Below, piece by piece: positions 15,878 through 30,247 of a stretch of DNA of 32,000 bases. The notes beneath the pieces were generated by a model. That model saw only the letters and a program-made list of their open reading frames with translations. It was not told the origin of the DNA and searched no databases. The translations under genes were made by a program, and so were the position numbers. The DNA is taken from positions 898-32,897 of the forward strand of contig NZ_SODD01000027.1 of assembly GCF_004365815.1 (NCBI RefSeq), read 5' to 3'. The stretch comes from Breznakia blatticola. GTDB lineage: Bacteria > Bacillota_I > Bacilli_A > Erysipelotrichales > Erysipelotrichaceae. Positions within the stretch are counted from its first letter, which is position 1, and each line of letters begins with the position of its first letter.

Positions 15878-15904
15878 ACTGACCTCTCTTTCATCATACC
15901 AAAT

Positions 15905-15940
15905 CTAAAATGGAAAAGGTGAAAGTTTTTCTTTCACCTG
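15905..15940 (-). terminator. Rho-independent terminator after PTS EIIBC
   Basis: Minus strand reads AGGTGAAAG-AAAAA-CTTTCACCT followed by TTTCCATTTTAG. Confidence 0.7.
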
Positions 15941-15951
15941 ATCGATTTGTA

Positions 15952-17334
15952 TTATACTTTTAATTTCTTTTCGACACTTTCGCTCCAACCAAACATGTAC
16001 GTTAAACCAAAAGCTAAGACTAATGAAGCAACTGCTCCTAATAATGCTCCATAGAATCCCATGTCAATTCCTGCTGGATTAATAAGTGCTGGAATACCTA
16101 AGATTCCTGTACCAAATGTATATCCTTTTCCACCAAGTAGTGAAGCAATTAATCCTCCAAGTGCTCCTCCTGCTAAACCAAAGATAAATGGTTTTCTTGC
16201 TGGAACATTAATACCAAATAATGCTGGTTCTGTAATTCCAAATAATCCAGATACTGCTGAACCTACACAAACTTGTGTAACGGCTTTGTTTTTTGAACGC
16301 AATCCGAATCCAAGTACTGCTCCAGTTTGTCCCATTGCAGAAGCAAAGAACACGATCGCAATTAATGGACAATATCCCATTGCTGCAAGATTTGCAATAA
16401 AGATTGATGAGAATGCTTTACTTACTCCAAATAAAACAAGTAGTTGCCAAATTCCACCTACAAGTACTCCAGTGATTAATGGACTAAATGCATACAATGC
16501 TTGAATTGCATCAGTAATGAATGACATTACTGCAGTTAATACAGGCCCAATAATTAAGAATGCAAGTGGTGTTACTACACACAATACAATCATTGGCACA
16601 AAAATCATCTTTAAAATATCTGGAACGATTTTTCTAGCAAACTTCTCAACGATTGCTGCCAAATATGTTGATAAAATAATTGGGAATACCGTTTTTGAAT
16701 AATTAACTAATGTTAATGGAAGAGCAAACAATGTTAACTGTTGTCCTTCATTTACCGCATTAATGATTTCAGGTGTGATCATTGCACATGCGATAATCAT
16801 TGCATAGAATGGTTTTCCACCGAATTTCTTAGCTGATGTATATGCTAAGAAGATCGGGAAGTAATAGAAGATTGCATTACTAATTGCATATAGCACTAGA
16901 TATGATCCACTCGTTGGATCTAACCATTTCAACATTACAAATAATGATAAGAACCCTTGTAGTGTACCACTTGCTGCTAACACACCAACGATAGGTACAA
17001 AGATTGCCGAAGCAATATCCGTAATTTTATCAAGCAATGAAGCATTTTTATCTGTCTCTGAAGATACTTCTACTTCACCTCCAGCTTTTGCTGGATATAT
17101 TTTAGCTGCTTCTTCATAGTAACTAGATACTGCATTACCAATCACTACTTGCAATTGTCCACCAGCATCGATGATTCCCATTACACCATCAGCTTTTGCA
17201 AGTTCTTCATCATTCACTTTCTTACGATCAACTAAAATAAATCGTAGTCGCGTAAAGCAATGACTAAATGATTGCACATTATCAATACCACCAACTAAAT
17301 CGATTATTGTTTTTACATTTTCTTTTACACTCAT
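15952..17334 (-). CDS. PTS glucose/beta-glucoside-family EIIBC component (no EIIA domain)
   Basis: EIIB motif FSHCFTRLRF (phosphorylatable Cys), polytopic EIIC with LFGITEPALFGINV. ATG at 17334 is preceded by AAAGAGGAGA; the GTG at 17385 from the ORF track has no RBS. Confidence 0.85.
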   Translation of the reverse strand: MSVKENVKTIIDLVGGIDNVQSFSHCFTRLRFILVDRKKVNDEELAKADGVMGIIDAGGQLQVVIGNAVSSYYEEAAKIYPAKAGGEVEVSSETDKNASLLDKITDIASAIFVPIVGVLAASGTLQGFLSLFVMLKWLDPTSGSYLVLYAISNAIFYYFPIFLAYTSAKKFGGKPFYAMIIACAMITPEIINAVNEGQQLTLFALPLTLVNYSKTVFPIILSTYLAAIVEKFARKIVPDILKMIFVPMIVLCVVTPLAFLIIGPVLTAVMSFITDAIQALYAFSPLITGVLVGGIWQLLVLFGVSKAFSSIFIANLAAMGYCPLIAIVFFASAMGQTGAVLGFGLRSKNKAVTQVCVGSAVSGLFGITEPALFGINVPARKPFIFGLAGGALGGLIASLLGGKGYTFGTGILGIPALINPAGIDMGFYGALLGAVASLVLAFGLTYMFGWSESVEKKLKV

Positions 17335-17419
17335 ATTATCTCTCCTCTTTGTGAAATCAAGTTTGTCTAATTTGTTTTCTAACACACTGATACTTATGTT
17401 GAATCAAGACCTCCTTTTG

Positions 17420-17433
17420 TGTAAGCGCATACA
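17420..17433. promoter_or_regulatory. Candidate cre (CcpA) catabolite-responsive element upstream of PTS EIIBC
   Basis: TGTAAGCGCATACA fits the relaxed cre consensus WTGNAANCGNWNNCW. Lies about 90 nt upstream of the EIIBC start. Confidence 0.45.
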
Positions 17434-17687
17434 TATCATAACGCAAGAATAGAGTCTTATCTTTCGCTTTTTTTACATGTAATCTACGAAAAAAGAACTT
17501 TTGATTTTACAAACATAAGAAAATGTAAAAATATATCACACGTTTTTTTACTTAAGTTTAACTGGTATTGAGTTTTCTGGCTAAAAGACTACTAAATTAT
17601 GATGTTTAACCGTAAAACTATTTCTTACGGATGATCTCTTATCTTTACTATACCGATTATTTTATCTCCTCACAATATAATCCTTAA

Positions 17688-17724
17688 TATAAAAAATCTA
17701 CACCATCTCTTGGCATAGATTTTC
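17688..17724 (-). terminator. Rho-independent terminator after the HAD-TM gene
   Basis: Minus strand reads AAATCTAtgCCAagagaTGGtgTAGATTT followed by TTTTATATT. Confidence 0.65.
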
Positions 17725-17726
17725 TT

Positions 17727-18728
17727 TTATATACATTGAATGACAATCAATACAATCCACAACAAACCTAGTGTAATATTTTGAATTACCTTGTTTTTAT
17801 ATAGTGGATCTTTGTATCGATCACGATACCGATTATAACTTTGTTTAAAAAAGAATAGAGAAATATAAAAATAGCTTACATAAAGTGGAAAACAGTATAA
17901 TGAAATACCTAGTCCAATAAGATATAACAAGATCTTCCAATGCATATTCAAAATAGGTTTTTGTCGTTTATCCAAATGTTCATTAATAATGTCTGAGACA
18001 TCATCAACTATTGCACTAGCTATTGACTTCACTTCTTCGTTTCCAATATTCATCGCATATCCGTGAAAGATTTCAATCATTTGTTTATCGTTTCCGCCAT
18101 CTCCAACAACAAGAACTTTATCACTCTTAGGTAAATGATGATCCAACAACCATTGTAATGATGTTGCCTTGTTATCGTGTAATCCATTTACATCGATTGT
18201 TTCAATATTTGGATGAAAAGATACTTCACTACCATACGCCTCTCGTAATAATTTCGTGGCTGTTTTCACTTTATCATATGTATCAAAGCGCATATCTATT
18301 CCATAATAATCATATTTTTCAATTTCATCGAGTTCAATTTCTTTCGTGTAATAATTATAAGTGCTTGCAGCTTCATTATCACTTTCAACTACCATACGCT
18401 CAAATCCAGCAGATAAAATATAATATACACTACTTCGCACGATTGGATCACATATGATTTTCTTTGCCAAACTTCCTGGAAACTTTGCTTCATAGATAGG
18501 CTTATACGCACTGTTATACACAACTGAACCATTATTACATACTGCAAAATGAAATGGGATTTTGTATTTGTCTATATCTTTTTTCAACGTCAAAATATCT
18601 CGTCCAGTCACAAAGATGAAGATATTTCCTGCATCTATCCAATTTGTAATTGCATCTACTGTTTTTTTCTTTATTTCACCTTTCGAATTTGTTAGTGTTC
18701 CATCCACATCACTTGCTAATACTTTCAT
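17727..18728 (-). CDS. Cof-type HAD-IIB phosphatase with a C-terminal hydrophobic membrane extension
   Basis: 333-aa ORF. HAD motifs LASDVDGTLT, FVTGRD, VVGDGGNDKQM. The last 75 aa or so hold 2-3 hydrophobic helices (ILLYLIGLGISLYCFPLYVSYFYISLFFF, ITLGLLWIVLIVIQCI). RBS AAAGGAGG. Confidence 0.8.
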   Translation of the reverse strand: MKVLASDVDGTLTNSKGEIKKKTVDAITNWIDAGNIFIFVTGRDILTLKKDIDKYKIPFHFAVCNNGSVVYNSAYKPIYEAKFPGSLAKKIICDPIVRSSVYYILSAGFERMVVESDNEAASTYNYYTKEIELDEIEKYDYYGIDMRFDTYDKVKTATKLLREAYGSEVSFHPNIETIDVNGLHDNKATSLQWLLDHHLPKSDKVLVVGDGGNDKQMIEIFHGYAMNIGNEEVKSIASAIVDDVSDIINEHLDKRQKPILNMHWKILLYLIGLGISLYCFPLYVSYFYISLFFFKQSYNRYRDRYKDPLYKNKVIQNITLGLLWIVLIVIQCI

Positions 18729-18740
18729 AATCCTCCTTTA

Positions 18741-18768
18741 GAAAAAAGGTAGGTTGACCTACCCTTTT
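18741..18768 (-). terminator. Intra-operon intrinsic terminator/attenuator between dhaL and the HAD gene
   Basis: Minus strand reads AAAAGGGTAGG-TCAA-CCTACCTTTTTTC. The dhaL TAG stop is inside the stem and the HAD RBS starts 3 nt after the T-tract. Confidence 0.55.
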
Positions 18769-19376
18769 ACACTGATTTCAAATGCTTCAAATAATAATAC
18801 AGCTACATATGCTCCTGGATCTAGTAAATCTCTAGAAGCTTCTCCTCTTGTTGCTGCACGTCCATGTTTGGCAATCATTGTCGCAGTTTGTTCATATCCT
18901 TGTCTAGCTGCTTTACTTGCTTTACTTGCTAATTGCGCTAATGGAAGTTCTATGTTTTCTTTTAATACTTGAACTGCTGGATCAATTCCATCAATAAATG
19001 TTTTTTCACCAACGTTTGCCTTACCTCGATTGATAACACCTGCTTCAAAACTGTCAAAGAACTGCACCCAGTTTTCATTTGTAAGTTCATTTTGATTTCG
19101 TAAATCTTTTCCTGCTTGCATCAAACCAGAAGCCATAAGCGTTCCCATCGTTGATGGCACTGCACTTGCCATGGCTTTTCCACCAGCATATACAAGTTTT
19201 CCTAGATCTTGTTCATCAGTATCTTTGACTGCAAGATATGCAGCACGAAATCCATCTGACATAGTAAGTCCTAAATCTCCATCACCAACAATTTGATCCA
19301 TTTCGATAAGTGTATCTTTATTTTCTTGCATGATGTTAGCAACAACTTCAAGATATCGTTTCATGTCTTGTAACAT
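18759..19376 (-). CDS. dhaL: DhaL-like (Dak2) nucleotide-binding subunit, divergent copy
   Basis: 205-aa ORF. Dak2 motif DQIVGDGDLGLTMSDGF (GDGDLG rather than GDGDHG). RBS AGGAGG. Confidence 0.8.
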   Translation of the reverse strand: MLQDMKRYLEVVANIMQENKDTLIEMDQIVGDGDLGLTMSDGFRAAYLAVKDTDEQDLGKLVYAGGKAMASAVPSTMGTLMASGLMQAGKDLRNQNELTNENWVQFFDSFEAGVINRGKANVGEKTFIDGIDPAVQVLKENIELPLAQLASKASKAARQGYEQTATMIAKHGRAATRGEASRDLLDPGAYVAVLLFEAFEISVKG

Positions 19377-19384
19377 ATTGCCTC

Positions 19385-20395
19385 CTACATTTGTTTGAAG
19401 AATGGCGTGTTGACTGGATAGTCAATCAATGGTTTAAGTTCTTCATCAACTTTGAGTAGTGAAATCGAAACACCTGACATTTCAAGTGCTGTTGCATATT
19501 CACCTACATAATAACGATACGCTTTAATGCCTTTTTCTTTTAAAATCGCATCAATTTTTCTTGTAACGATGTATTGTTCATCTAGTGGAGTTGCACCTAA
19601 TCCATTAACAAGAACAGCAACTTCATCACCTTCAACATATGGTAAATCCGCAAGAATTTGTTGCATCATTTCTTCTGTGATTTGATCTGCACTTTCTAAC
19701 TGACCACGGCGAATTCCTGTTTCACCATGTATTCCCATACCGATTTCCATTTCATTTTCTTCAATGGAGAATCCCGCTTTTCCAACTCTTGGAACTACAC
19801 ATGCACTTAAGGCAACACCCATCGTGCGTACATTATCTGCTGCTTTTTGGGCAATTCGGGTAACGGTTTCTAAATCGTACATTTTTGCTGCCGCTGCTCC
19901 TGCACATTTATAGACAAAGAAAATTCCAGCCACACCTCTACGTGTGCTTTTTTCTCCTGGTGCACTTGGTCCAGCACTAGCTACATCATCGGCTCCAAGC
20001 ACAGTTGTCACTTGAATATTTTCTTCAAAGTCGGCCATTTCTGTAGCCATATCAAAGTTAAAGATATCCCCATTATAGTTTCCATAAATGTAAAGAACTC
20101 CTGCACCTTGATCAATGTCTTTGGTAATTTCAAACATCTGTTCTGCTGAAGGAGATTGAAATACATCACCTACTGCACAACCATCAAGCATCCCATCACC
20201 AACATAACCTAGAAATAATGGTAAGTGTCCAGATCCACCACCAGTAGAAATCCCTACTTTTCCTGGTGTTTTATTTTTTGTGACATAACACTGAAGATCA
20301 TCATTTACACAAGTTACTTGATCTTGATGTGCAATATAAATCCCTTCTAACATTTCTTTTAGATAGTTTTCTGGATTGTTTATAATCTTTTTCAT
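19385..20395 (-). CDS. dhaK: DhaK-like (Dak1) substrate-binding kinase subunit, divergent copy
   Basis: 336-aa ORF with STGGGSGHLPLFLGYVG (HLP rather than HEP) and MGIHGETG (hemiaminal His region). Confidence 0.8.
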   Translation of the reverse strand: MKKIINNPENYLKEMLEGIYIAHQDQVTCVNDDLQCYVTKNKTPGKVGISTGGGSGHLPLFLGYVGDGMLDGCAVGDVFQSPSAEQMFEITKDIDQGAGVLYIYGNYNGDIFNFDMATEMADFEENIQVTTVLGADDVASAGPSAPGEKSTRRGVAGIFFVYKCAGAAAAKMYDLETVTRIAQKAADNVRTMGVALSACVVPRVGKAGFSIEENEMEIGMGIHGETGIRRGQLESADQITEEMMQQILADLPYVEGDEVAVLVNGLGATPLDEQYIVTRKIDAILKEKGIKAYRYYVGEYATALEMSGVSISLLKVDEELKPLIDYPVNTPFFKQM

Positions 20396-20402
20396 ATAGA
20401 AC

Positions 20403-21065
20403 CTACTTTAGTGTAATTTCTTTTGGATACGCCCAACTTTGTAATTCTTCTGCTGGGAAGAATTCAGGTTCTTTACCATTTAATGCAGTTAATGTATTGT
20501 AGTAAAGTTGTGCAAGTTCTTCAATATACGCTGCTTTTAAATACGCTTCATAAATATCATTTGCATCACATGCAACTGCTCCATGACCTTTCATTAAGAA
20601 ACAATCCGCTTCTTTTACTGGCTCGACGGCTGTTTCTGCTAGTTCTGGAGTTCCAGGACGACCATATGCAGCAACTGGTACACGACCTTTTGATAACCCC
20701 ATAGTTGCAACTTCATAAACAATTGCTGGTAATGGTTTATTTAATACTGCAAACGTTGTTGCATACATAGAGTGTGTATGCGCAATTGCTACTACATCTT
20801 CTCTTGTTTCATATATTTTTAAATGCATAAGTGATTCACTTGTTGGACGTAATCCAGATAAGTTTTCAATTACCACTGCATTCATATCCATTACAATCAT
20901 ATCTCTAGGTGTCAACAATTCACGGTCAACACTTGTCGGTGTAATTACAACATAACCAGTTTCTTTATCACGAGCGGAAAAGTTTCCTGATTTATGTTTA
21001 CATAAGCCATCTTTTTGTGCGCGTTTTGCGATTTCACACACATCTTTCTTTAAAGCTTCTAACAT
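20403..21065 (-). CDS. Class II aldolase/adducin-family protein (FucA / L-ribulose-5-P 4-epimerase-like)
   Basis: 220-aa ORF with PTSESLMH, IAHTHS and MKGHGAV (Glu plus three His zinc ligands). RBS AGGAGG. Confidence 0.8.
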   Translation of the reverse strand: MLEALKKDVCEIAKRAQKDGLCKHKSGNFSARDKETGYVVITPTSVDRELLTPRDMIVMDMNAVVIENLSGLRPTSESLMHLKIYETREDVVAIAHTHSMYATTFAVLNKPLPAIVYEVATMGLSKGRVPVAAYGRPGTPELAETAVEPVKEADCFLMKGHGAVACDANDIYEAYLKAAYIEELAQLYYNTLTALNGKEPEFFPAEELQSWAYPKEITLK

Positions 21066-21073
21066 AGTTCCTC

Positions 21074-23137
21074 CTATTTTATTAATATGTTAAGCATTTG
21101 GTCAACATCACTTGCTCGACGCAATGCTTTCATTTTCGTTTCATTCTCTGTTATTTCAATAAACTGAAATAATGGGTTTAAGTGTTTGGTACGATCTGGT
21201 GTTGCTAGTACTACAATCATATCCGCTTCTAAATAATCAAAGATCGGAATACGTTTTGGTAATCGTAAAAGTCCCATTGCAACTTCATTTACCCCATCAT
21301 CAATTCCTGCATGTGCCACGATGACACCATCAGCAATCGCAATATATGGTTTATCTTGTTCTATCGAATCAATCATTTTCTTTACATAACGAGATTCAAT
21401 ATCTCCTTGATCGAGTAAGGGTTTAGCTGCCTTTTCAATGGCTTGTTGCCATGAAAGTTCCTCATGTTCTACTTGAACGGTTTTCGTTGTTAGAATATCT
21501 GCAAGCGACAACTCTATTCCTTCTTGATGTACAACTTTTTGTGTAGGTAAAGAAGGATCTTGAAATAAGTACTGTTGTAAGTCTTTCATCATCTGTTCAT
21601 TATCATCGACTTGAGCATGTTTTCTAACAATATCCATAATCTCAGATAAGTTGATGCGATGTGGTTTAATTCCACTTAAGCTTCCCATCACCTTTTCTCT
21701 AAAACGTTGTTTTGCATAATCATTTAGAAATGGCTTTACTAAATATTGTGGTTTTTCACTATCCAAACGTACCGTTGTAAAAATCAAATCGTATGGTTTG
21801 TCATATTCTTCAAATGCACGAATCGATAAACAATCCTTGAATTCGATCTCTGGTAATAATTCAGATAGTGTGACATATAAATAGTTGGATACTGTCACAC
21901 CGTTTGAACAAATTACAATCGCTTTTTTCTTTTCCTCAATGATCTCAAGATTTCCTTCTTTTTTTAGCCACGCTCCAAAAAGCACAGTTAAATACACAAG
22001 TTCATCATCAACGATTTCACTTCCTACAAATGCTGCAAACGGTTGACTTGCTCGTCGTACCATTTCATGCAGTTGGGCATGTTGTGGTAAGACCATATCA
22101 ATTGCACTATTTTCGATATGAAATTGATACTTCATTCGATAATATGCAGGCTTACAGTGTTGCACTAATGCTTCTAGTAGTGCGGATTTTCCTTGAATTT
22201 GGACCAAGGAAATCTCTTCAAAGCGTTCAATCATATCAAATGCTGCATCAGTAATTTGCTTTTCAACTTCCACATCATCCGTACGCATTGAACTCACATT
22301 TGAACTTTGAATTTGTGCTGCAATAAACATCCGTTCTAACTGATTTTCTACGGCATATTTTTGCACAAGAATATTGGTTGCTGTATATTCACTAGTTCCA
22401 ACAATATGTTGAAATGATTCAGCAATTGCATCCAATAATTTACCTTGTTTGATGCGACGTAAAATCAAGTATAGAATAAATGGTAATTCTTCCAAGCGCT
22501 CATCTGTGAATTTGATATTTAGCTTATCCTCGATCAACATAATCGATTCATACACAGATGCAAATTCTGCTTCTTCAATATTACAGATTTTCTTTATGAC
22601 ACAAGCTCCATTTGGCATTAGTAATACTTTGCGAATCGCCGTGATTAAACTTTCACGTTTCGCAAACTCGCTTCCTGTCATTCGATATCCATCTTTTCTT
22701 GAATAATGCACATCTACTTTGTAATTTCGACATAAGGTTTGTTGCAGCTTTTTTAGATCCAGTAAGAATGTATTCTTACTAATATTGAGTTCGTATGTAA
22801 AATCAGCAGTGGATAATTCTTCTTGGCGGCATAGTAAAAGAAGCACAATTAAATACTGTCTTTCTTTATCTGAATATGTATAATCAGCTTCTTCTAGGTT
22901 GAAGTTTTCGGTCTTATATTCATCAATAACTGGTGCTGGAATTTGAAACTTTCCTGTTTTTAAACGTTCAATACATTCAAATCCATTATCCATAAGATAA
23001 TCATTTACTTTCTCAAGCGAATAACTCAGTTGCTTTCTTGATAAATCAAGCATGTCTTGTAATTGCTTTCCAGTAATTGTTGGATTATCTACGATTTGTA
23101 ATAAGACATTACGACTTCTTTCATCCAAATATGCCAT
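21074..23137 (-). CDS. PRD-domain transcriptional activator of the MtlR/LicR/ManR type (HTH-Mga-PRD-PRD-EIIB-like-EIIA-like)
   Basis: 687-aa ORF. Two N-terminal HTH regions, central PRD-like helical repeats with conserved His, EIIB-like KKAIVICSNGVTVSNY (Cys), and a C-terminal EIIA(Mtl/Fru)-like region GVIVAHAG...DMIVVLATPD. Confidence 0.8.
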   Translation of the reverse strand: MAYLDERSRNVLLQIVDNPTITGKQLQDMLDLSRKQLSYSLEKVNDYLMDNGFECIERLKTGKFQIPAPVIDEYKTENFNLEEADYTYSDKERQYLIVLLLLCRQEELSTADFTYELNISKNTFLLDLKKLQQTLCRNYKVDVHYSRKDGYRMTGSEFAKRESLITAIRKVLLMPNGACVIKKICNIEEAEFASVYESIMLIEDKLNIKFTDERLEELPFILYLILRRIKQGKLLDAIAESFQHIVGTSEYTATNILVQKYAVENQLERMFIAAQIQSSNVSSMRTDDVEVEKQITDAAFDMIERFEEISLVQIQGKSALLEALVQHCKPAYYRMKYQFHIENSAIDMVLPQHAQLHEMVRRASQPFAAFVGSEIVDDELVYLTVLFGAWLKKEGNLEIIEEKKKAIVICSNGVTVSNYLYVTLSELLPEIEFKDCLSIRAFEEYDKPYDLIFTTVRLDSEKPQYLVKPFLNDYAKQRFREKVMGSLSGIKPHRINLSEIMDIVRKHAQVDDNEQMMKDLQQYLFQDPSLPTQKVVHQEGIELSLADILTTKTVQVEHEELSWQQAIEKAAKPLLDQGDIESRYVKKMIDSIEQDKPYIAIADGVIVAHAGIDDGVNEVAMGLLRLPKRIPIFDYLEADMIVVLATPDRTKHLNPLFQFIEITENETKMKALRRASDVDQMLNILIK

Positions 23138-23156
23138 CCTTACCCCCTGTTTCTAT

Positions 23157-24152
23157 TTATACGCGTAAACCCATACTATCTGCTTCAACTTCAAGTAATT
23201 CATGGAGTTCATCATCCATACGCATGATGGTTAATGCAGCTCCATTCATATCTAGTGAGGTTACATAATTACCAACCAACACTTTATCAATATTGATATT
23301 TCTTGCTTGAAGTTCACTTTCAATATCATTATACAATACGTAAAGTTCCATAATTGGTGTTGCTCCTAAACCAGAGACAATCACAGAAAGTGTTTCATCT
23401 GCTTTCACTTCCAAATCATCAACTACAGCTTTTACCATATCTTTTGCAATATCTTTTGCACTTTTTAAATCTTCCACATGCATGCCTGGTTCTCCATGGT
23501 GTCCAATTCCAAATTCCATTTTTCCTTCATCAATATGGAAGTTTGGTTTTCCTACTGCAGGAATGGTACATGAAGATAATCCCACACAAATACTGCGTGT
23601 TTGATTCACTGTTTTTTGTGCGACGCGAATGACTTCATCAAGAGTAGCTCCTTGACTTGCCTTTGCCCCTGCAACTTTCCACATGAATACACCACCAGCT
23701 ATACCGTGACGTTTTTCTTTTGTCTCTTTTGGTGAAGATGATACATCGTCTGTTGCAACAACGTATTTTACTTCTACTCCTTCATCTAGACACATGTCGA
23801 CTGCCATTTTTACATTCATGTTATCTCCAGCGTAGTTACCAAATAAACAAGCAACCCCATTTCCACTATCAACACTCATAAATGCATCATAGAACGCTTG
23901 TGCTGGTGGAGAAGAAAATACTTCTCCAACCGCTACTGCATCAAGCATTTGGTGTCCTACATAGCCAAGAAATGCTGGCTCATGTCCACTTCCACCACCA
24001 CTAACAAGTCCGACCTTGCTAGCAATTGGTGCTGCTTTTAACTTCATAACATGATCATTTTCACTTAATATTTCTAACTCTGGACGAGCTTTTTCAATAC
24101 CTTTCATCATATCTTCAACGATGAAATCGGCATGATTCACAAATCTTTGCAT
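23157..24152 (-). CDS. dhaK: DhaK (Dak1) dihydroxyacetone-kinase-type subunit, canonical copy
   Basis: VSGGGSGHEPAFLGYVG and FGIGHHGEPG. ATG at 24152 (MQRFVNHADFIVEDMMKG) is preceded by AGGTGG at 8 nt; the GTG at 24164 from the ORF track is less likely. Confidence 0.85.
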   Translation of the reverse strand: MQRFVNHADFIVEDMMKGIEKARPELEILSENDHVMKLKAAPIASKVGLVSGGGSGHEPAFLGYVGHQMLDAVAVGEVFSSPPAQAFYDAFMSVDSGNGVACLFGNYAGDNMNVKMAVDMCLDEGVEVKYVVATDDVSSSPKETKEKRHGIAGGVFMWKVAGAKASQGATLDEVIRVAQKTVNQTRSICVGLSSCTIPAVGKPNFHIDEGKMEFGIGHHGEPGMHVEDLKSAKDIAKDMVKAVVDDLEVKADETLSVIVSGLGATPIMELYVLYNDIESELQARNINIDKVLVGNYVTSLDMNGAALTIMRMDDELHELLEVEADSMGLRV

Positions 24153-24164
24153 ACTATAACCCAC

Positions 24165-24800
24165 CTATCTTAATAACTTCTTGCAGCCATCAGCAAACGA
24201 CTCAAGAATGAGTTGTGCACTTGTTGCTCCAGCATCTTGATGACCTTTTGAACGTTCTCCAAGTCTTGATGCGCGTCCAAGTTTTGCCACCATATGTTTT
24301 GTTGCTTCAAGCCCTGCTTGTGATGCCCCAACCATTTCAGTTAACGCTTTATTTACATCTTGTGATGCATCAAATTCTTTATGATATGCGTAAATTGCAG
24401 GATCTAATACATCAACTAATGTTTTATCATTCACTTTTGCTGGTGATATCTTTTTAATATTGTCATATGCTTTATCTAGCATTTCACCAATGATTTGACC
24501 ATCGATTTCTTCATGTTGTTTACTAGCAACATATAGGCCACGAAAGAAATTTCCGTATAATGGACCCATACTTCCTCCAATTTTACTCATAAGCATTTTA
24601 CTAATGATTTGAAAACCTGTACTCATATTTTCTTTACCAGTTAATGCTTCTTTTGCTAGTGTAAAGCCTTTATTCATGTTAATTCCATGATCACCATCAC
24701 CAATTGCACCGTCGATTTCGCTTAAGTAATCACGATTTTTTTGAATACATGCAATGATGGTTTCAACTATTTCAATTCCTTCTTGATTCGTAAACTTCAT
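24165..24800 (-). CDS. dhaL: DhaL (Dak2) ADP/ATP-binding subunit, canonical copy
   Basis: 211-aa ORF with the Dak2 motif DGAIGDGDHGINMNKGF. Confidence 0.85.
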   Translation of the reverse strand: MKFTNQEGIEIVETIIACIQKNRDYLSEIDGAIGDGDHGINMNKGFTLAKEALTGKENMSTGFQIISKMLMSKIGGSMGPLYGNFFRGLYVASKQHEEIDGQIIGEMLDKAYDNIKKISPAKVNDKTLVDVLDPAIYAYHKEFDASQDVNKALTEMVGASQAGLEATKHMVAKLGRASRLGERSKGHQDAGATSAQLILESFADGCKKLLR

Positions 24801-24801
24801 A

Positions 24802-26172
24802 TTACGCTCTTTCTGCTGCTGCTACTTCTTTTGCGTTTTTTGCTTCTCTACGTAATTCACGGTAGTACATTGTGTATCCTGCTAACCAAGCTACAAGTAC
24901 AACCACTGGGATAAAGTTTCCATTTACTACATCAAATACTTGTGAAATTCCGTATGTAAATACTGGACCATCAATTGATGAGTTTGAAATCATTTGTCCT
25001 GCTGCTAAATCAACAGCACCTGTTGCGTTTGCTAAGTCTGTAATAAATGGTGCAAATGCTGTACCAATCCATAAGAAGCATGGAACTCCGATTGTACAAA
25101 GAATTAACATTCTTGGTAAGTTTCCTTTTGTTACTAAGTATGCAGGTACTGCTAATGCAATATTGATAATTCCAGCAAATGGTAAGATTTCGTTTCCTGG
25201 TAAAATCATAGACATTAATAAGGTTACTGGCACTGACCAAATAACTGCTAACCAAATTTCATTTGATCCACCTAGGAATGGCCAGTCAAGACCAACAATT
25301 AAACTTCTTCCTTCGAAACGTTTGTTCATAAAGTCACTAACCGCTTCAGAAATTGGTGATAATGCTTGCATAAAGTATTTTGAAATCACTGGGAATAATG
25401 TTAATGCAGTTGCAGCTTGAACTCCTAACGTTAAGATTTCAGCTGGACTCCATTTTGCCATGATTCCAAATACACATCCTAAGATAAATCCAAGTACGTG
25501 GTTTTCTGCAAAGATACCAACTTTTTCTTTTAATGCTTCCGCATCAAAGTCTTTGTTGAATGCAGGAATTTTACGTAATAATAAATCGAATGGGTATAAA
25601 ATTGCTCCAAAGAATACCATTTTGTGTGTACAAGTAACTCCAGGAATTCCTGATAATTCTTCAATACGGTGTGAGTGTACATCTGCTGTTTTAAGTTCAA
25701 AGATAATTTGAATTGTAGCAACTACAAATGCTAAAGGTACACTATCTGTAATGGCAACAACACAAACTGCAGTAAAGATTTTCCCCCATACATTCCATAA
25801 ATCTGCATTGAATGTTTCTGTTTTCTTTAACACGATCATAATAATGTTCACAACGATAAGTAATGGGAACATTAAGAATGCATATGGCCATGACCATGAG
25901 ATTGTCGATAATGTTGTCCATCCACCATCAACAATTGGTAATGAAATACCTGTTGATTCTAACATTGCTTCTGCTGCTGGTGAAATTGCCCCAGTCATAA
26001 AACTAATAAGCATTGACATTCCGGTAAATGCAACCCCTAATGTAATACCTGCAGAGATTGCATCTTTCACTTTCATACGAACAAGCAATCCTGCAAAAAT
26101 GATGATAATTGGTACGAATACTGCTGCCCCTAAACTAAGTAGCCAGTTAACTACATTTTGTAAAATATCCAT
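24802..26172 (-). CDS. PTS galactitol-family EIIC permease
   Basis: 456-aa polytopic membrane protein. Its size and position after EIIA(Mtl/Fru-type) and EIIB(Gat-type) genes fit the GatC family. RBS AGAGGAGAG. Confidence 0.78.
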   Translation of the reverse strand: MDILQNVVNWLLSLGAAVFVPIIIIFAGLLVRMKVKDAISAGITLGVAFTGMSMLISFMTGAISPAAEAMLESTGISLPIVDGGWTTLSTISWSWPYAFLMFPLLIVVNIIMIVLKKTETFNADLWNVWGKIFTAVCVVAITDSVPLAFVVATIQIIFELKTADVHSHRIEELSGIPGVTCTHKMVFFGAILYPFDLLLRKIPAFNKDFDAEALKEKVGIFAENHVLGFILGCVFGIMAKWSPAEILTLGVQAATALTLFPVISKYFMQALSPISEAVSDFMNKRFEGRSLIVGLDWPFLGGSNEIWLAVIWSVPVTLLMSMILPGNEILPFAGIINIALAVPAYLVTKGNLPRMLILCTIGVPCFLWIGTAFAPFITDLANATGAVDLAAGQMISNSSIDGPVFTYGISQVFDVVNGNFIPVVVLVAWLAGYTMYYRELRREAKNAKEVAAAERA

Positions 26173-26202
26173 AAATTTAAACTCTCCTCTTTTGTTTTCT
26201 TA

Positions 26203-26484
26203 TTAGCCATTATTCACGGCATCAATTAGTCTTTGTAATTCCTCTTTTTGTTTCATTCCTGTAAGAAATGCAATTCCATTGATTACTGGAATTGGATATT
26301 CCTTATTTGTTTTCGTAATTGCAATGTATGCAACCGCATCCGTCAAATGACGATCCACAGATTTTAAGTCTACCGCTTCTACTTTTGCGTCAACTTTATT
26401 TTCTTTTAGTAAACGATTTACTTTACTTGCTACGGTTTGTGAAGTTGCTACTCCACTACCACAAGCCACGATTATTTTTTTCAT
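26203..26484 (-). CDS. PTS galactitol/lactose-type EIIB component
   Basis: 93-aa ORF. MKKIIVACGSGVATS carries the active-site Cys in the P-loop-like motif. RBS AGGAGGG. Confidence 0.82.
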   Translation of the reverse strand: MKKIIVACGSGVATSQTVASKVNRLLKENKVDAKVEAVDLKSVDRHLTDAVAYIAITKTNKEYPIPVINGIAFLTGMKQKEELQRLIDAVNNG

Positions 26485-26492
26485 AGTCCCTC

Positions 26493-26960
26493 CTAATCGA
26501 ATCCTTTTATATTGATTATTTCTTGATAATATTCATCTACTGTTTTTGCATTGAGTAAACGATCCATCAAATCTTGATCCTGCAGATTATCAACTAGGAG
26601 TTGCAACATTTCCACATGTCCATCACCTTTTATGAATCCAAGAACAAAGATTAGTTGAACGTCATGCCATACATCACTGGTTGCCATTTCACACCAAGCA
26701 ATTGGTTTTGCTAGTCGAACTGCTGCAACAAATGGGGTGATAATATGTACTGCATCCGCATGCGGTATCGCAATTGGATATGGTTGCGTTGGTAAGCCTG
26801 TTGGGTATGCTTCTTCCCTTGTTACCAATGCTTGATAATATGTTTCCTTCACAAATCCTTTGGCAAAAAGTATTTCACTCATTTTCGCAAAGAAATCATT
26901 TTGATTTTCTACCTGCATATCTAGTTGAATCAGGTCTTTGATAATCATTGAACTGTCCAT
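26493..26960 (-). CDS. PTS EIIA component (mannitol/fructose/Ntr-type fold, GatA-like)
   Basis: 155-aa ORF with PTGLPTQPYPIAIPHADAVH (active His) and FVLGF. RBS AAAGGAGAG. Confidence 0.8.
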   Translation of the reverse strand: MDSSMIIKDLIQLDMQVENQNDFFAKMSEILFAKGFVKETYYQALVTREEAYPTGLPTQPYPIAIPHADAVHIITPFVAAVRLAKPIAWCEMATSDVWHDVQLIFVLGFIKGDGHVEMLQLLVDNLQDQDLMDRLLNAKTVDEYYQEIINIKGFD

Positions 26961-27021: not shown

Positions 27022-27050
27022 ATTATATGAGTAGAAACATTTTCAGGCAA
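27022..27050 (-). promoter_or_regulatory. Sigma-A type promoter of the PTS-dha operon
   Basis: Minus strand reads TTGCCT, a 17-nt spacer, then TATAAT (perfect -10). Lies about 60 nt upstream of the EIIA start. Confidence 0.55.
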
Positions 27051-27069: not shown

Positions 27070-27089
27070 ATGCACAACACAATGTGCAA
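27070..27089. promoter_or_regulatory. Inverted repeat TGCACA-N6-TGTGCA, candidate activator operator
   Basis: aTGCACAacacaaTGTGCAa. The promoter-proximal half-site ends exactly 20 nt upstream of the -35 hexamer. Confidence 0.45.
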
Positions 27090-27185: not shown

Positions 27186-27761
27186 TCACAAATTTTGATT
27201 CATAATTTCGACTAAAGTAAACATGTCATGACCCCATGTTAATTTTAAGATACAGCAATTGCCAACACCAGTTTCCTTAATCGCTTCAAGACTAGGATCC
27301 ATATGACAAGTCTCTAAGAAATAAGCAATACTCACACCTGAACTTACAGCAAGTATGACTTGACTATCCCTATCATGGCAAACTTGTTGCAAATAATAGC
27401 TCACTCTAGTTTTTACATCCTGTGCGCTTTCTCCACCAACTTTACTCGTTAATGTATCCCCATAAATATCTTGCTGACCTGCTCCTATATAGACTTCACC
27501 TTCTACTTCTCCATACCAACGTTCACGTAAATCTTTACTTCGTTGATATGGTTGATTTGGTGCAATATACTCCATTGTGTCACAACATCTTTCACTCGTG
27601 GAACAAACAAGTGTATCAAAGTTTACATCTTTAAGTATTTCATGTGCCTGTTTGGCTTGTTTAATCCATTTATCTGTTAGTGGTGAATCACACCACCCTT
27701 GAATCCGGTGCTGTACATTGAAGTACGTTTGTCCATGTCGAACTACATATAATGTTTTCAT
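27186..27761 (-). CDS. Histidine phosphatase superfamily protein, variant lacking the second conserved His
   Basis: VVRHGQTYFN, STSERCCDT, RERWYGEVEGE, but AVSSGVSIAYF where paralogs have xSHGxxI. ATG at 27761 (MKTLYVV) is preceded by GAGGG at 8 nt; the ORF track starts at TTG 27767. Confidence 0.78.
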   Translation of the reverse strand: MKTLYVVRHGQTYFNVQHRIQGWCDSPLTDKWIKQAKQAHEILKDVNFDTLVCSTSERCCDTMEYIAPNQPYQRSKDLRERWYGEVEGEVYIGAGQQDIYGDTLTSKVGGESAQDVKTRVSYYLQQVCHDRDSQVILAVSSGVSIAYFLETCHMDPSLEAIKETGVGNCCILKLTWGHDMFTLVEIMNQNL

Positions 27762-27781
27762 ATACAATTCCCTCTACATGC

Positions 27782-27898: not shown

Positions 27899-28645
27899 TT
27901 ATGTATGTAATGCATCAACAAAGTCGATAACTGCTTGTTTGTCTACACATTCATAATCAAGTTCGTGATTCTTCGCATATCCATACGATACCTGTTTTGC
28001 TTTTGCTGTAAGATCTCTTTTCCATGTTTTACATGATGCATGTACTTGCTGCAACTGCGTCTTTTCAAGTACTTGCTTTACATTATCTGCACGCAAACCT
28101 ACACCACCTAAGATTTCGATTTGCTTGCCATATGTATTTTGTAGGTAGGCTAGTGTCTCAATTCCGGTAATAGCAGTTTCACCTTGTCCACTTGTTAGTA
28201 CACGATCCACCTTACAATTTATAAGTGTACGCATTGCTTCATCAATATCTTGTATGACATCAAATGCACGATGTACAACAGCTTGTCCACCATACTTATG
28301 AATCAAATCACAAAATTCTTTTGTGCGTGCAGCATCAATTGTAAAATCTTCATTTAGAAATCCAAACACAATTGCTTCTACACCTTCTTGTAATAACAAC
28401 TGTGCATCTTGTTTCATCACTTCATATTCTTCATTTGTATAATGAAATCCACCAGCTCTAGGACGCACCATAGCTGCAATTGGCAATGAAATATGTTGTT
28501 TTACTAATTTCACTGTTCCCATACTTGGCGTTAGTCCACCTAAATATAATGCACTATTTAACTCAATACGGTTTGCCCCACCTGCTTGTGCAGCCAAACA
28601 ATCTTCATAACTTCCTGCACATACTTCAAAAATTATATCTTTCAT
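27899..28645 (-). CDS. cutC: CutC family protein (copper homeostasis protein CutC-like TIM barrel)
   Basis: 248-aa ORF collinear with E. coli CutC as recalled: EVCAGSYEDCLAAQAGGANRIELNSAL..GGLTPS, VRPRAGGFHY, HRAFD, RVLTSGQ. Confidence 0.85.
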   Translation of the reverse strand: MKDIIFEVCAGSYEDCLAAQAGGANRIELNSALYLGGLTPSMGTVKLVKQHISLPIAAMVRPRAGGFHYTNEEYEVMKQDAQLLLQEGVEAIVFGFLNEDFTIDAARTKEFCDLIHKYGGQAVVHRAFDVIQDIDEAMRTLINCKVDRVLTSGQGETAITGIETLAYLQNTYGKQIEILGGVGLRADNVKQVLEKTQLQQVHASCKTWKRDLTAKAKQVSYGYAKNHELDYECVDKQAVIDFVDALHT

Positions 28646-28659
28646 GGTTCCTCACTTTA

Positions 28660-28700
28660 TTTTGCATACAAAATGCAAAAGACAGAATTGCTTCCGTCTT
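28660..28700 (-). terminator. Terminator-like hairpin after the SIS gene
   Basis: Minus strand reads AAGACgGAA-gcaa-TTCtGTCTT followed by TTGCATTTTG. An adjacent palindrome TTTTGCAT-ACAA-ATGCAAAA is also present. Confidence 0.5.
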
Positions 28701-28702
28701 CT

Positions 28703-29437
28703 TTACTTGGTATATAAACGTGCGTATTTTTTCATGAAGGCATCATTTTTTTCAAATCCTCCATCAACATTTGCACTCACGAACACTTCAACTTCTTGTC
28801 CATTTTGAGCTAGCGTACTTGCGCAAACTACACTGATTGCACCACAAATAAATGCATTGGCAATCGATGATGTTGGATACATTGGAATATCGATTCCTTC
28901 AAAATAACTCGCTGCATCCCCTTTTTGTCCGCAGTTATCAATAACAATATCTGCAACTTCTAGTAAACGCTTGTTGTGTTTATTACGTGGCTTTGTTTCC
29001 ATTGAATGGTGTACGTTAGTAATTGCAATGACGGTTGCTTTACGTCTTTTTGCTTCAACTGCAACTTCTACTGGATATGGATTTCTTCCAGAGTTACTTG
29101 CAATTAAAACAACATCACCTTCTTGAATATCAAATAAATCGACAAGTAGATCCCCATATCCATCAAGATTTTCAATTAGGGAACTCTTTGTTGGGTGCTC
29201 ATTTAGTGTTAATTCTGTAGGCATCATTGGCACCACAAAAGCAAGCCCTCCTGCACGCCCATAAAACTCTTCAGCTACAGAATGTGAATGTCCACTTCCC
29301 GTCACTAAAAAGCGATGTCCTGCACTATGCGCATTAGCAATAGCAATTCCAGCTTCTTCGATTGCCTTTGCTTGTGTATCCTTAATCTTATGTACAACGT
29401 CTAAACCAATACTAAATGTCTGCTCAACTAGTTTCAT
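28703..29437 (-). CDS. SIS (sugar isomerase) domain protein, UPF0309-like
   Basis: 244-aa ORF with FLVTGSGHSHSVAEE and LIASNSGRNPYPVE (SIS phosphosugar-binding motifs). RBS AGGAGA. Confidence 0.75.
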   Translation of the reverse strand: MKLVEQTFSIGLDVVHKIKDTQAKAIEEAGIAIANAHSAGHRFLVTGSGHSHSVAEEFYGRAGGLAFVVPMMPTELTLNEHPTKSSLIENLDGYGDLLVDLFDIQEGDVVLIASNSGRNPYPVEVAVEAKRRKATVIAITNVHHSMETKPRNKHNKRLLEVADIVIDNCGQKGDAASYFEGIDIPMYPTSSIANAFICGAISVVCASTLAQNGQEVEVFVSANVDGGFEKNDAFMKKYARLYTK

Positions 29438-29446
29438 AAGTTTCTC

Positions 29447-30247
29447 CTATTTTAAGATTTCAAAATGTTTACAGGCTTCATAGATTCCATTTTTACCACA
29501 TGGTTTTGTCACAAAGTCTGCTTTTGCTTTTACTTCATCGACAGCATTGCCCATTGCAACACCAATCCCACATGTTTCAATCATACTTAAATCATTATAG
29601 TTATCACCAAAGGCTATCGCTTGTTCCATCGTGCATCCAATATGCTCACAAATATGTGCGATGGCGTTTGCTTTACTTGTCTTCTTTGGGTGAATATCAA
29701 ATCCATTTCCAAAGAACTTATCAAATTGTAAGTGTGGATACTTCGGTTTGATTTGTTTAAAGATGCTCGGTTCAACACGACTCACTGCAGCTAAAGGTAA
29801 ACTTTGCTTATGTCGTGTTTTCTTTTTTCGATGATCTTCAAAATTACCCCAACGACCTAGCAAGATCATCAAACGATTTTGCAAAGGAAGTTTTCCTGCA
29901 TATAAATATCCTTTTTCAGGAAATTGAAATTGTAAATATTGTTTGAAGTGCGTGAAATCTTGGACAAGATTTTCTGTATCCTGTTTCGATAATGGTTCAC
30001 TATACAATTCATGAAATGCATGATCCATGATATAGGTTCCGTTCAAACAAATATAATAATCAAATGTGAAATACTGTGATAGTTTTTCTTTTACGAAATA
30101 TGGTGGACGTCCACTTGCAATTGCAAGTTTAATTCCCTGTTCACGTAACTTATTTAGACAGTTCAAATCATCTTCTTCAATTCGATGTGTTATATGGTTA
30201 AACAAGGTTCCATCAACATCAAATGCAGCTATTTTTATATCTTTCAT
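29447..30247 (-). CDS. Cof-type HAD-IIB family hydrolase (sugar phosphatase-like)
   Basis: 266-aa ORF with AAFDVDGTLF, IASGRPP, AFGDNYNDLSM. Confidence 0.82.
   Translation of the reverse strand: MKDIKIAAFDVDGTLFNHITHRIEEDDLNCLNKLREQGIKLAIASGRPPYFVKEKLSQYFTFDYYICLNGTYIMDHAFHELYSEPLSKQDTENLVQDFTHFKQYLQFQFPEKGYLYAGKLPLQNRLMILLGRWGNFEDHRKKKTRHKQSLPLAAVSRVEPSIFKQIKPKYPHLQFDKFFGNGFDIHPKKTSKANAIAHICEHIGCTMEQAIAFGDNYNDLSMIETCGIGVAMGNAVDEVKAKADFVTKPCGKNGIYEACKHFEILK

Follow-up and report, generated by a model that had tools for sequence, protein, structure and literature searches.

A phosphotransferase system operon of Breznakia blatticola that combines a FucA-type aldolase with two kinds of DAK-family kinase

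INTRODUCTION

Split dihydroxyacetone (DHA) kinases of bacteria consist of a substrate subunit, DhaK, and a nucleotide subunit, DhaL, and are normally phosphorylated from the phosphotransferase system (PTS) via DhaM. Canonical DhaK/DhaL enzymes, such as those of the DhaKLM systems of Escherichia coli and Lactococcus lactis (EC 2.7.1.121), act on DHA and glyceraldehyde. FucA-type aldolases split ketose-1-phosphates into dihydroxyacetone phosphate (DHAP) and an aldehyde. In this study, we analyzed a 32,000-nt stretch of the genome of Breznakia blatticola (assembly GCF_004365815.1, contig NZ_SODD01000027.1, positions 898 to 32,897; hereafter called the window), which carries a ten-gene, PTS-controlled operon for the catabolism of a carbohydrate. 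All of its parts belong to known families, and their arrangement is uncharacterized. A first, sequence-only reading had suspected an uncharacterized ketose or polyol pathway, and we found no paper on this operon in the full-text literature; one article treats a GatY-type tagatose-bisphosphate aldolase and not this operon (PMC10101011), and another lists canonical dhaKLM only (PMC10746215).

The galactitol system GatABC-GatD-GatYZ resembles the Breznakia operon in its Gat-family EIIA, EIIB, and EIIC, and in the TagT/TagK-GatY route of Bacillus licheniformis a PTS-delivered sugar phosphate likewise ends in a DHAP-yielding aldol cleavage (PMC10101011). Unlike these galactitol and tagatose routes, however, the operon lacks a polyol-phosphate dehydrogenase, a PfkB-type kinase, and an FBA-type (GatY/KbaY) aldolase. 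FucA and FucO of the L-fucose/D-arabinose branch of E. coli and Bacillus DrdA (PDB 6BTD) provide a second point of reference. The aldolase fold and catalytic residues are shared, and an iron-dependent alcohol dehydrogenase (Fe-ADH) follows in many related loci, as FucO follows FucA, but the Breznakia aldolase is only 33% identical to FucA and has lost the hydrophobic aldehyde pocket, there is no isomerase or FGGY kinase, and the sugar is delivered by a PTS.

What is new is a sugar-PTS operon with a FucA-type aldolase and DAK-family kinases as its only catabolic enzymes, together with two conserved kinase clades of fixed gene order, the lack of a nearby DhaM, and recurrent phosphatases. We tentatively propose that the PTS produces a ketose 1-phosphate of 3R configuration, that the aldolase cleaves it to DHAP and glyceraldehyde, and that the DAK kinases phosphorylate the triose. 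The operon is thus a lead for a sugar pathway in abundant gut Firmicutes rather than a categorically new mechanism. Its genes are currently annotated as fuculose aldolase and dihydroxyacetone kinase, and identification of the sugar, whether dietary or from the host, would add a missing route to the maps of gut carbohydrate use. Moreover, the label "DhaK/DhaL" can be split into at least three functional kinds, whose motif signatures are usable for annotation, and the question arises of how split DAK kinases work without DhaM.

RESULTS AND DISCUSSION

Extent and control sites of the operon

Nine tightly packed open reading frames, separated by intergenic gaps of 0 to 30 nt, occupy the minus strand from 26960 to 18759 in the order EIIA, EIIB, EIIC(Gat), DhaL1, DhaK1, PRD/EIIA activator, FucA-type aldolase, DhaK2, and DhaL2 (Table 1). 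Their coordinates and families were given correctly in the sequence-only reading, with Pfam matches far beyond chance. That reading had also assigned the nine genes to a single transcription unit. The short gaps and the absence of any real internal terminator agree with this, but the 3′ end lies beyond 18759: a HAD phosphatase gene is the tenth and last, and the unit ends at an intrinsic terminator (ΔG, −15.6 kcal/mol; z, −3.9) that none of 200 shuffled sequences matched in folding. The gaps within the unit are too short to hold terminators. Terminator-like matches inside it are weak and all lie within coding sequence, and their total does not exceed chance (11 found; 6.3 ± 3.0 expected).

Promoter-like sites are not enriched as a class in the region (51 versus 57 expected), and the scan thus speaks neither for nor against internal promoters. 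For the same reason, the site proposed earlier as the operon promoter rests on its position and conservation; we take it to be real, as its −10 box (CATATAATG) is conserved in locus L009 of Breznakia pachnodae. An inverted repeat 5′ of the −35 box is also kept in B. pachnodae, both in sequence and in its spacing to the −10 box. Folded as RNA, the repeat is not significant (z, −1.2), which argues for a DNA site rather than a terminator, and it may be where the activator binds. No Rfam match or cre site was present in the window. Pfam and NCBIfam searches agree with the initial statement that no polyol dehydrogenase, PfkB kinase, or tagatose-bisphosphate aldolase is encoded in the operon.

TABLE 1 Coordinates of the operon genes, control sites, and flanking phosphatase gene in the window
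Feature	Position	Strand	Basis or remark
His_Phos_1 (PGM/CobC-like) phosphatase	27186-27767	minus	Pfam, E = 5e-37
Inverted repeat, TGCACA-N6-TGTGCA	27071-27088	minus	5′ of −35 box; candidate activator site
Sigma-70-type promoter-like site, TTGCCT-17-TATAAT	27022-27050	minus	10/12 matches
EIIA, Mtl/Fru/Gat fold, 155 aa	26493-26960	minus	PTS_EIIA_2 PF00359, E = 1e-30
EIIB, Lac/Cel/Gat type, 93 aa	26203-26484	minus	PTS_IIB PF02302, E = 9e-12
EIIC, Gat family, 456 aa	24802-26172	minus	EIIC-GAT PF03611, E = 5e-67
DhaL1, type-1 nucleotide subunit	24165-24800	minus	Dak2, E = 2e-51
DhaK1, type-1 substrate subunit	23157-24164	minus	Dak1, E = 8e-110
MtlR/LicR-like activator, 687 aa	21074-23137	minus	Pfam Mga, HTH_11, PRD, PTS_EIIA_2
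FucA-type class II aldolase, predicted Zn-dependent, 220 aa	20403-21065	minus	Aldolase_II PF00596, E = 4e-45
DhaK2, type-2 substrate subunit	19385-20395	minus	Dak1, E = 3e-117
DhaL2, type-2 nucleotide subunit	18759-19376	minus	Dak2, E = 4e-41
HAD phosphatase, last gene of unit	17727-18728	minus	30 nt 3′ of DhaL2
Intrinsic terminator ending the unit	17685-17725	minus	15-bp stem + UUUUUU

A FucA-type aldolase behind a Gat-family transporter

The aldolase is at least 70% identical across Erysipelotrichaceae, Lachnospiraceae, Clostridium, Agathobaculum, and one Atopobiaceae metagenome-assembled genome (MAG). Its closest solved structures are Bacillus 6BTD and the streptococcal and E. coli FucA enzymes. 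It scores below the cut-offs of both FucA models, however (NF005302, 138.4 bits versus 264; TIGR01086, 101.4 versus 400.25), and thus appears to represent a distinct and highly conserved subfamily that is not a FucA equivalog. In an alignment with E. coli FucA and AraD, the FucA zinc ligands H92, H94, and H155 and the acid/base residues E73 and Y113 are all kept, whereas AraD carries D and T at the positions of E73 and Y113. The alignment with FucA covers the full length, whereas matches to the AraD-type NCBIfam models are confined to the N-terminal half. Because the FucA catalytic set is kept and the AraD pattern is absent, the enzyme should be mechanistically a DHAP-forming ketose-1-phosphate aldolase, and a role as epimerase or decarboxylase was dropped on the same grounds.

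Ketose-1-phosphate aldolases of the FucA fold family give 3R products, and the aldolase type therefore points to D-allulose, D-sorbose, L-tagatose, L-xylulose, D-ribulose, or polyols yielding these as the source. A tetrulose was rejected as substrate, since its cleavage would release formaldehyde and the operon has no means to handle it. In FucA, F131 and F206 form a hydrophobic wall for the methyl group of lactaldehyde. This wall is not kept: F131 is replaced by P preceded by R, and F206 by W. Beside Y113 lies a three-residue insertion that brings in K126 (at least 90% conserved) and an invariant R128. The changed wall and the added basic residues suggest that the aldehyde half of the substrate is polar or anionic.

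The catalytic residues bear on a scheme in which the PTS would form an ω-phosphate that binds the aldolase in a reversed, AraD-like orientation and is cleaved to DHA and glyceraldehyde 3-phosphate (GAP), the kinase pairs then being true DHA kinases. DHA is the primary substrate of the DAK family, and the reaction of AraD, which belongs to the same fold family, proceeds through an enediolate of DHA. Release of DHA would also explain two contexts described below, namely, kinase pairs accompanied only by ABC transporters (DHA uptake) and those in microcompartment loci (DHA plus an aldehyde consumed in the compartment). Nevertheless, the retention of E73 and Y113, the full-length alignment with FucA, and the partial match to the AraD models all speak against it, and the recurrent phosphatases would still be unexplained; we consider this scheme improbable.

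The three PTS proteins fall below the cut-offs of the galactitol equivalogs. The best NCBIfam match of EIIA is GatA (75.8 bits; cut-off, 139), EIIB, which has an N-terminal IIVACG cysteine motif, reaches 39.9 bits with the GatB model (cut-off, 95), and EIIC reaches 276 bits with TIGR00827 (cut-off, 542). The transporter can therefore be assigned to the Gat family, but galactitol is not implied. The activator has the MtlR/LicR architecture, with an N-terminal HTH/Mga region, a PRD, and a C-terminal EIIA domain of the Mtl type, and in nearly all related loci with a PRD regulator its gene is kept between EIIC or DhaK1 and the aldolase.

Two old clades of kinase pairs

The inverted subunit order that had been noticed in the two kinase pairs, L-K and then K-L, holds well beyond Breznakia: the pairs that we call type 1 are always encoded L→K and those of type 2 always K→L. 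DhaK1 and DhaK2 of the window are 38% identical and DhaL1 and DhaL2 are 31% identical, and each of the four subunits is 53 to 73% identical to its counterpart in Enterococcus avium. DhaK1 starts with a GTG at 24164 or, more probably, with an ATG at 24152; gene callers give 331 aa in sister strains. Neighbor-joining trees, which are without bootstrap support but agree with the motifs, separate type 1 and type 2 from each other and from a canonical group, which contains the E. coli subunits and the pair of the sister operon described below; DhaK2 falls within a monophyletic type-2 clade. The low identity and the conservation of each clade across families indicate old paralogues that are not redundant, and the possibility raised earlier that the pairs are redundant is thus not borne out.

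Both pairs are predicted to be catalytically competent, as DhaK1 and DhaK2 keep H56, D109, and H218 in an alignment with E. coli DhaK and both DhaL subunits keep the Mg-binding Asp triad (D30, D35, and D37). They differ in the surrounding motifs. DhaK1 has GHEPAFLGY and GIGHHGEPG (G-x-G-H-H-G-E), and DhaL1 has the canonical GDGDHG and KIGGSMGPLYG. The type-2 clade of DhaK carries GHLP(L/V)FLGY (GHLPLFLGY in the window), which corresponds to the changes E57L and H60F of the E. coli enzyme. DhaL2 has GDGDLG, and its GGxSGP loop is replaced by (V/A)PS(T/S)(M/L)GT (VPSTMGT in the window, within AVPSTMGTLMA). The canonical nucleotide loop GGxSGPLxG is thus present in DhaL1 but not in DhaL2, and the change is clade-wide. 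The type-2 family is very large: the D-x-D-(L/I)-G motif occurs in 134 of the 150 best representatives from clustering at 50%, down to about 32% identity, and the PS-x-x-G-T loop was also found in those type-2 representatives that were listed in full. In one representative, P0371 (573 aa), K and L are naturally fused, and both type-2 signatures are present. The use of DHG versus DTG/DLG as a marker of PTS or ATP dependence was dropped, because a fused kinase in an Atopobiaceae locus (L027, described below) also has DHG.

DhaKLM is the closest relative of known structure, at 240 to 254 bits for the K subunits and 77 to 103 bits for the L subunits, and shares the split K/L organization, H56/D109/H218, and the Asp triad. 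In contrast to the DhaKLM systems, the Breznakia operon lacks DhaM, glycerol dehydrogenase, DhaR, and DhaS, and its kinases are set in a sugar PTS/aldolase operon. Three of its subunits also fall short of the equivalog cut-offs: DhaK1 and DhaK2 score 355.6 and 379.1 with the DhaK model (TIGR02363; cut-off, 406.25), and DhaL2 scores 131.0 with the DhaL model (TIGR02365; cut-off, 138.3), which DhaL1 passes with 169.7. The ATP-dependent single-chain DHA/erythrulose kinases (Citrobacter DAK; TIGR02361) belong to the same family, and the type-2 fusion P0371 and the PTS-free loci described below recall them. However, the Breznakia subunits are split and score far below the dak_ATP cut-off of TIGR02361 (259.8 and 262.9 for the K subunits and 105.2 and 84.1 for the L subunits; cut-off, 574.95), and the solved Citrobacter DAK matches them less closely than the PTS-dependent enzymes do.

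The sequence-only reading had also suggested that one pair is a sensor. DhaL1/DhaK1 would then report a carbonyl intermediate to the PRD activator, as DhaQ/DhaS or the DhaK/DhaL-DhaR couple does. DhaK1 is indeed encoded directly upstream of the PRD regulator in all Gat-type loci, sometimes without an L subunit, and sensor paralogues also retain the substrate-binding histidine. However, all catalytic residues of DhaK1 are kept, and it scores far better with the DhaK model than with the DhaQ model (TIGR02362; 237.9 for DhaK1 and 233.5 for DhaK2; cut-off, 413.25). Type-1 pairs also occur in Man-family PTS operons under GntR control, where they are flanked by genes for a dehydrogenase and HxlA and have no adjacent PRD activator, and we know of no DhaK-binding domain in PRD activators. 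No TetR (DhaS) or DhaR gene is present in the window. On this evidence, a sensor role is highly improbable.

Conservation of the operon

The core PTS-regulator-aldolase-DhaK2-DhaL2 recurs in about 115 related loci, which come from Erysipelotrichaceae, Lachnospiraceae, Clostridium, Agathobaculum, and Atopobiaceae. Named homologues occur in Clostridium innocuum, Lachnospiraceae, Anaerostipes, Hungatella, Lacrimispora, Agathobaculum, and Enterococcus avium, and a metagenome scan yielded 306 stretches that encode a relative, many of them from human-gut assemblies. Genes of 20 genome loci and 80 metagenome loci were classed by tblastn against reference proteins, and locus types were counted in the 35 metagenome loci with enough flanking sequence.

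The arrangement to which the window belongs, IIA-IIB-IIC-L1-K1-PRD-aldolase-HisP-K2-L2, with the His-phosphatase gene inside the operon, was found in 11 of the 35 loci. Just as frequent (11/35) was IIA-IIB-IIC-K1-PRD-aldolase-K2-L2, in which a lone DhaK1 occurs without its own L subunit. The type-1 kinase is missing altogether from IIA-IIB-IIC-PRD-aldolase-HisP-K2-L2 (3/35) and from IIA-IIB-IIC-PRD-aldolase-K2-L2-HAD (1/35). What all loci of the PRD type have in common is thus IIA-IIB-IIC, the PRD regulator, the aldolase, DhaK2, and DhaL2, with no other catabolic enzyme. No isomerase was added in the related loci, no dehydrogenase in those of the PRD type, and no PfkB, LacC, or FGGY kinase was encoded in any locus. 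In locus L078, DhaK2 and DhaL2 are 91% and 84% identical to those of the window.

In 7 of the 35 loci, all of the lone-DhaK1 type, an Fe-ADH gene with an aldehyde-reductase-like profile lies 86 nt 3′ of DhaL2. An Fe-ADH in loci of the L1-K1 type was dropped as an operon member, since it was 28% identical to the reference and lay beyond a gene on the opposite strand. Another addition was seen in L016 (12985-14725) from an uncultured Erysipelotrichaceae, where a transketolase split into N- and C-terminal halves is encoded directly after DhaL2.

The remaining type in the count (9/35), IIB-IIC-DhaK-DhaL-ZnADH-σ54-RhaD-like aldolase-aldolase, is a sister operon. It consists of an oppositely oriented EIIA gene, IIB-IIC(Gat), a canonical DhaK-DhaL pair, a Zn-dependent dehydrogenase, rpoN, and two aldolases, one of which is orthologous to that of the window (75% identity). 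Its kinase subunits exceed the NCBIfam equivalog cut-offs (DhaK, 457.7 versus 406; DhaL, 170 versus 138). The sister operon was seen in L014 (2406-10663), L022, L050, L083-L090, and others; it contains the sigma-54 gene rpoN, and its aldolases are a RhaD-like enzyme and the FucA-like orthologue. In three metagenome contigs, the sister type and the PRD type lie about 77 kb apart.

A second DAK kinase has joined the core pair more than once, because in the Atopobiaceae MAG locus L027 (13022-14791) a 589-aa fused DhaK-DhaL of a separate lineage follows the split type-2 pair.

Other contexts of the two kinase types

Type-1 pairs were seen only beside PTS genes, and these belong to two PTS families, Gat and Man. 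They follow EIIC(Gat) in Breznakia, Clostridium saudiense, and many metagenome loci, and they lie in the GntR-controlled Man-family PTS operons in E. avium and Oceanobacillus. The latter operons (L038, 4539-13649, and L042, 4383-11911) encode a sorbitol-6-phosphate dehydrogenase, a mannitol-1-phosphate-dehydrogenase-like protein, type-1 DhaL-DhaK, and HxlA/HxlB, which are bona fide formaldehyde-fixing enzymes of the ribulose monophosphate pathway with scores above the cut-off. There is no class II aldolase in either operon, and that of E. avium adds a type-2 DhaK-DhaL pair.

Type-2 pairs also occur away from PTS genes. In operons for CUT2 ABC transporters with a LacI regulator, a type-2 pair is the only enzyme, sometimes joined by an Fe-ADH. 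Such loci are L035 (3063-10545) and L126 (227-5467); in L126, genes for a 429-aa Fe-ADH and a PFK-family kinase come after the pair. A type-2 pair also stands at the end of the microcompartment loci L036 (1-10621) and L125 (1-10630). These encode a longer class II aldolase (305 to 312 aa), an aldehyde dehydrogenase, four shell proteins, a PduL-type phosphotransacylase, EutN, two CoA-transferase subunits, and a flavoprotein, and L125 additionally has an Fe-ADH. A full-text literature search found nothing that links DAK kinases to microcompartments.

A proposed pathway through ketose 1-phosphate and its rival

The conserved module contains no other catabolic enzyme, so that at most one DAK kinase step can lie between the PTS product and its cleavage by the aldolase. 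In the pathway that we favor, the Gat-family EIIA/B/C would import the sugar and, as we infer, phosphorylate the primary hydroxyl beside the keto group, giving a 3R ketose 1-phosphate; PTSs that form ketose 1-phosphates are known for fructose, sorbose, and tagatose. The zinc aldolase would then release DHAP and a free hydroxy-aldehyde, most likely glyceraldehyde, and the DAK-family kinases would trap this aldehyde, or DHA derived from it, as triose phosphate. The MtlR/LicR-type activator would tie expression to the phosphorylation state of the PTS. In its proposed logic, the pathway resembles mammalian fructolysis (ketohexokinase, aldolase B, and TKFC), in which a ketose 1-phosphate gives DHAP and glyceraldehyde and the latter is converted to GAP. 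In mammalian fructose metabolism, the triokinase acting after aldolase B is the DAK homologue TKFC (PMC6429413). Unlike in fructolysis, the 1-phosphate would come from the PTS rather than from ketohexokinase, the aldolase is a class II FucA-type (3R) and not a class I enzyme, and the kinases are split and of two kinds.

Several observations argue for this order of events. The same aldolase partners a canonical DHA/glyceraldehyde kinase in the sister operon, it is FucA-like and not AraD-like, and there are precedents both in the ketose-1-phosphate-forming PTSs and in the succession of liver aldolase B and triokinase. The presence of type-2 pairs as the sole enzyme beside CUT2 ABC transporters suggests that a small free substrate is phosphorylated directly. 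A free aldehyde product is indicated by the aldehyde-reductase-like Fe-ADH, which follows DhaL2 and accompanies type-2 pairs elsewhere. Because DhaK1 occurs without DhaL1 in 11 of the 35 loci, the two K subunits appear to share one L subunit and to differ in substrate, not in nucleotide; DhaK1 would then work with either DhaL. The aldolase-linked type-2 pair would be the core triokinase, and the PTS-linked type-1 pair would be a second, nonredundant kinase for a different small carbonyl substrate. The two substrates might be DHA versus glyceraldehyde or the D versus the L form, but these are guesses only. Among the roles that had been considered for the kinases, phosphorylation of a triose thus fits best with the sister-operon kinase, the ABC transporter contexts, and the Fe-ADH.

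A different order was also put forward in the sequence-only reading, in which a DAK pair replaces the PfkB-type kinase. The PTS would form a ketose ω-phosphate, DhaK/DhaL would add the C1 phosphate, and the aldolase would cleave the 1,ω-bisphosphate to DHAP and a phosphorylated aldehyde (GAP for a hexulose). The more cationic aldehyde pocket, in which basic residues have come in place of the FucA hydrophobic wall, lends some support to this idea. It would also account for the lack of any PfkB, LacC, or FGGY kinase among the loci and for the loss of the acidic E57 in DhaK2, and in the microcompartment loci the type-2 pairs share an operon with a class II aldolase, where a ketose 1-kinase would be needed. 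On the other hand, no FucA-family enzyme is known to us to accept bisphosphates. The pairing of the same aldolase with a canonical DHA/glyceraldehyde kinase in the sister operon, the type-2 pairs that stand alone with ABC importers of unphosphorylated substrates, and the free aldehyde suggested by the Fe-ADH also speak against a kinase that acts first, as do the known substrates of DAK enzymes, which are C3-C4 open-chain carbonyls (PMC6429413). We regard this order as unlikely.

The ketose-1-phosphate pathway in turn has points against it. The R-P sequence in place of F131 and the residues K126 and R128 would also suit a phosphorylated aldehyde. To our knowledge, all characterized polyol and Gat-type routes leave the hydroxyl adjacent to the carbonyl free, which would favor a kinase acting before the aldolase. 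A phosphatase is encoded in most loci and has no essential role in this pathway. In the microcompartment loci, the aldehyde would be expected to go to the aldehyde dehydrogenase, and a role for a triokinase is not obvious there. Finally, among solved structures both pairs are most closely related to PTS-dependent kinases, and the use of ATP is something that we infer.

The phosphoryl donor

As first noted from the sequence, the operon encodes no DhaM-like (EIIA-Man/HPr-like) protein, and none is encoded in the entire window. DhaM was also absent within 10 kb of the operon in the approximately 115 related loci, and a hidden Markov model for EIIA-Man/DhaM, built from three seeds and thus of limited sensitivity, found only the EIIA controls of Man-family PTSs in 1.66 Mb of loci. 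The type-2 pair probably uses free ATP, as suggested by its PTS-free contexts, the natural fusion P0371, the remodeled loop, and the lack of a nearby DhaM. For type 1, the canonical loop and the strict association with PTS genes suggest PTS dependence, and the donor could be a remote DhaM or the operon's own EIIA.

A remote dhaM would be in keeping with another view, in which both pairs are ordinary, partly redundant PTS-dependent DHA kinases that recycle DHA or glyceraldehyde and whose phosphoryl transfer offers nothing new. The closest solved relatives of all four subunits are PTS-dependent subunits of L. lactis and E. coli, DhaL1 exceeds the DhaL equivalog cut-off, and a shared remote DhaM is plausible because the canonical DhaK/DhaL of the sister PTS operon is also without one. 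However, DhaK1, DhaK2, and DhaL2 are below their equivalog cut-offs, the divergence of the pairs and the conservation of their clades argue against redundancy, type 2 has a remodeled loop and occurs both as a fusion and in PTS-free loci, and no dhaM was found in the 1.66 Mb of flanking sequence. This view is, in our estimate, distinctly unlikely.

Alternatively, the type-1 kinase might be charged directly by the sugar-PTS proteins of its own operon. Either the Mtl/Gat-fold EIIA or the EIIA domain carried by the PRD activator would rephosphorylate the ADP on DhaL, and in the Enterococcus and Oceanobacillus operons the donor would be a Man-type EIIA. We put this forward because type 1 is found only beside PTS genes, of two families, and never has a DhaM within 10 kb, but we consider it a long shot. 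If true, it would constitute a new branch point of the PTS phosphorelay, through which the uptake of a sugar is linked to the phosphorylation of its own cleavage fragment.

Phosphatases associated with the operon

The His_Phos_1 gene upstream of the operon reaches no NCBIfam equivalog cut-off and forms a separate transcript in the window, as it has its own terminator (approximately 27176-27140; ΔG, −15.3; z, −4.4). Orthologues lie between the aldolase and DhaK2 genes in most related operons (that of L078 is 69% identical), which suggests a functional link to the operon. The HAD gene encodes a Cof-type HAD-IIB protein (Hydrolase_3, E = 2e-33) and is next to DhaL2 in all eight sister-strain contigs, beyond which the sequences differ. 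L026 and L080 likewise have a HAD gene after DhaL2, and in L009 one is located two genes downstream of it. The C terminus of the Breznakia HAD protein (17727-17990) is a strongly hydrophobic tail of about 85 aa that is absent from the 250-aa homologue of B. pachnodae; it probably forms two or three membrane helices, which suggests that the phosphatase is membrane anchored.

One or the other of these nonhomologous phosphatases is present in most but not all loci. In the ketose-1-phosphate pathway, they would be accessory enzymes that relieve overflow or remove dead-end phosphate esters. They would have a central role if the PTS served for uptake only: a phosphatase would strip the phosphate from the imported sugar, as the enterococcal maltose-6′-phosphate phosphatase MapP does, a DAK pair would then form the ketose 1-phosphate, and the second K subunit would handle glyceraldehyde. 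No other scheme considered here assigns a function to all recurrent components, the nonhomologous phosphatases among them, and this one is also compatible with the ABC transporter and microcompartment contexts. Yet two complete loci, L019 and L093, are among several without a phosphatase, His_Phos_1 is missing from all 11 lone-DhaK1 loci, an extra high-energy phosphate would be spent, and free ketohexoses are mostly cyclic and thus poor substrates for hemiaminal capture. We judge such a scheme to be quite improbable.

Genomic surroundings

The genes on both sides of the operon give no consistent clue to its substrate. Directly downstream of the HAD gene lies an island of about 11 kb (6716-17700) with genes for a Glc-family PTS EIIBC, an AraC-GH39 fusion, two GFO/IDH/MocA oxidoreductases, two xylose-isomerase-like TIM-barrel proteins, a C-glycoside deglycosidase beta subunit (PF19906), a His-phosphatase, a ROK kinase, and EIIA-Glc. 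In its gene content, the island resembles a PTS-linked cluster for C-glycoside cleavage of the DgpABC kind, and it is present in the sister strain L002 and absent from L001, L003, and L004. Upstream, on the same strand as the operon (27899-31750), are genes for a DUF1846 protein, a Cof-type HAD protein, an SIS_2 sugar-isomerase-domain protein, and a CutC-family protein, and a homologue of the SIS_2 protein is also encoded near the aldolase operon in locus L011.

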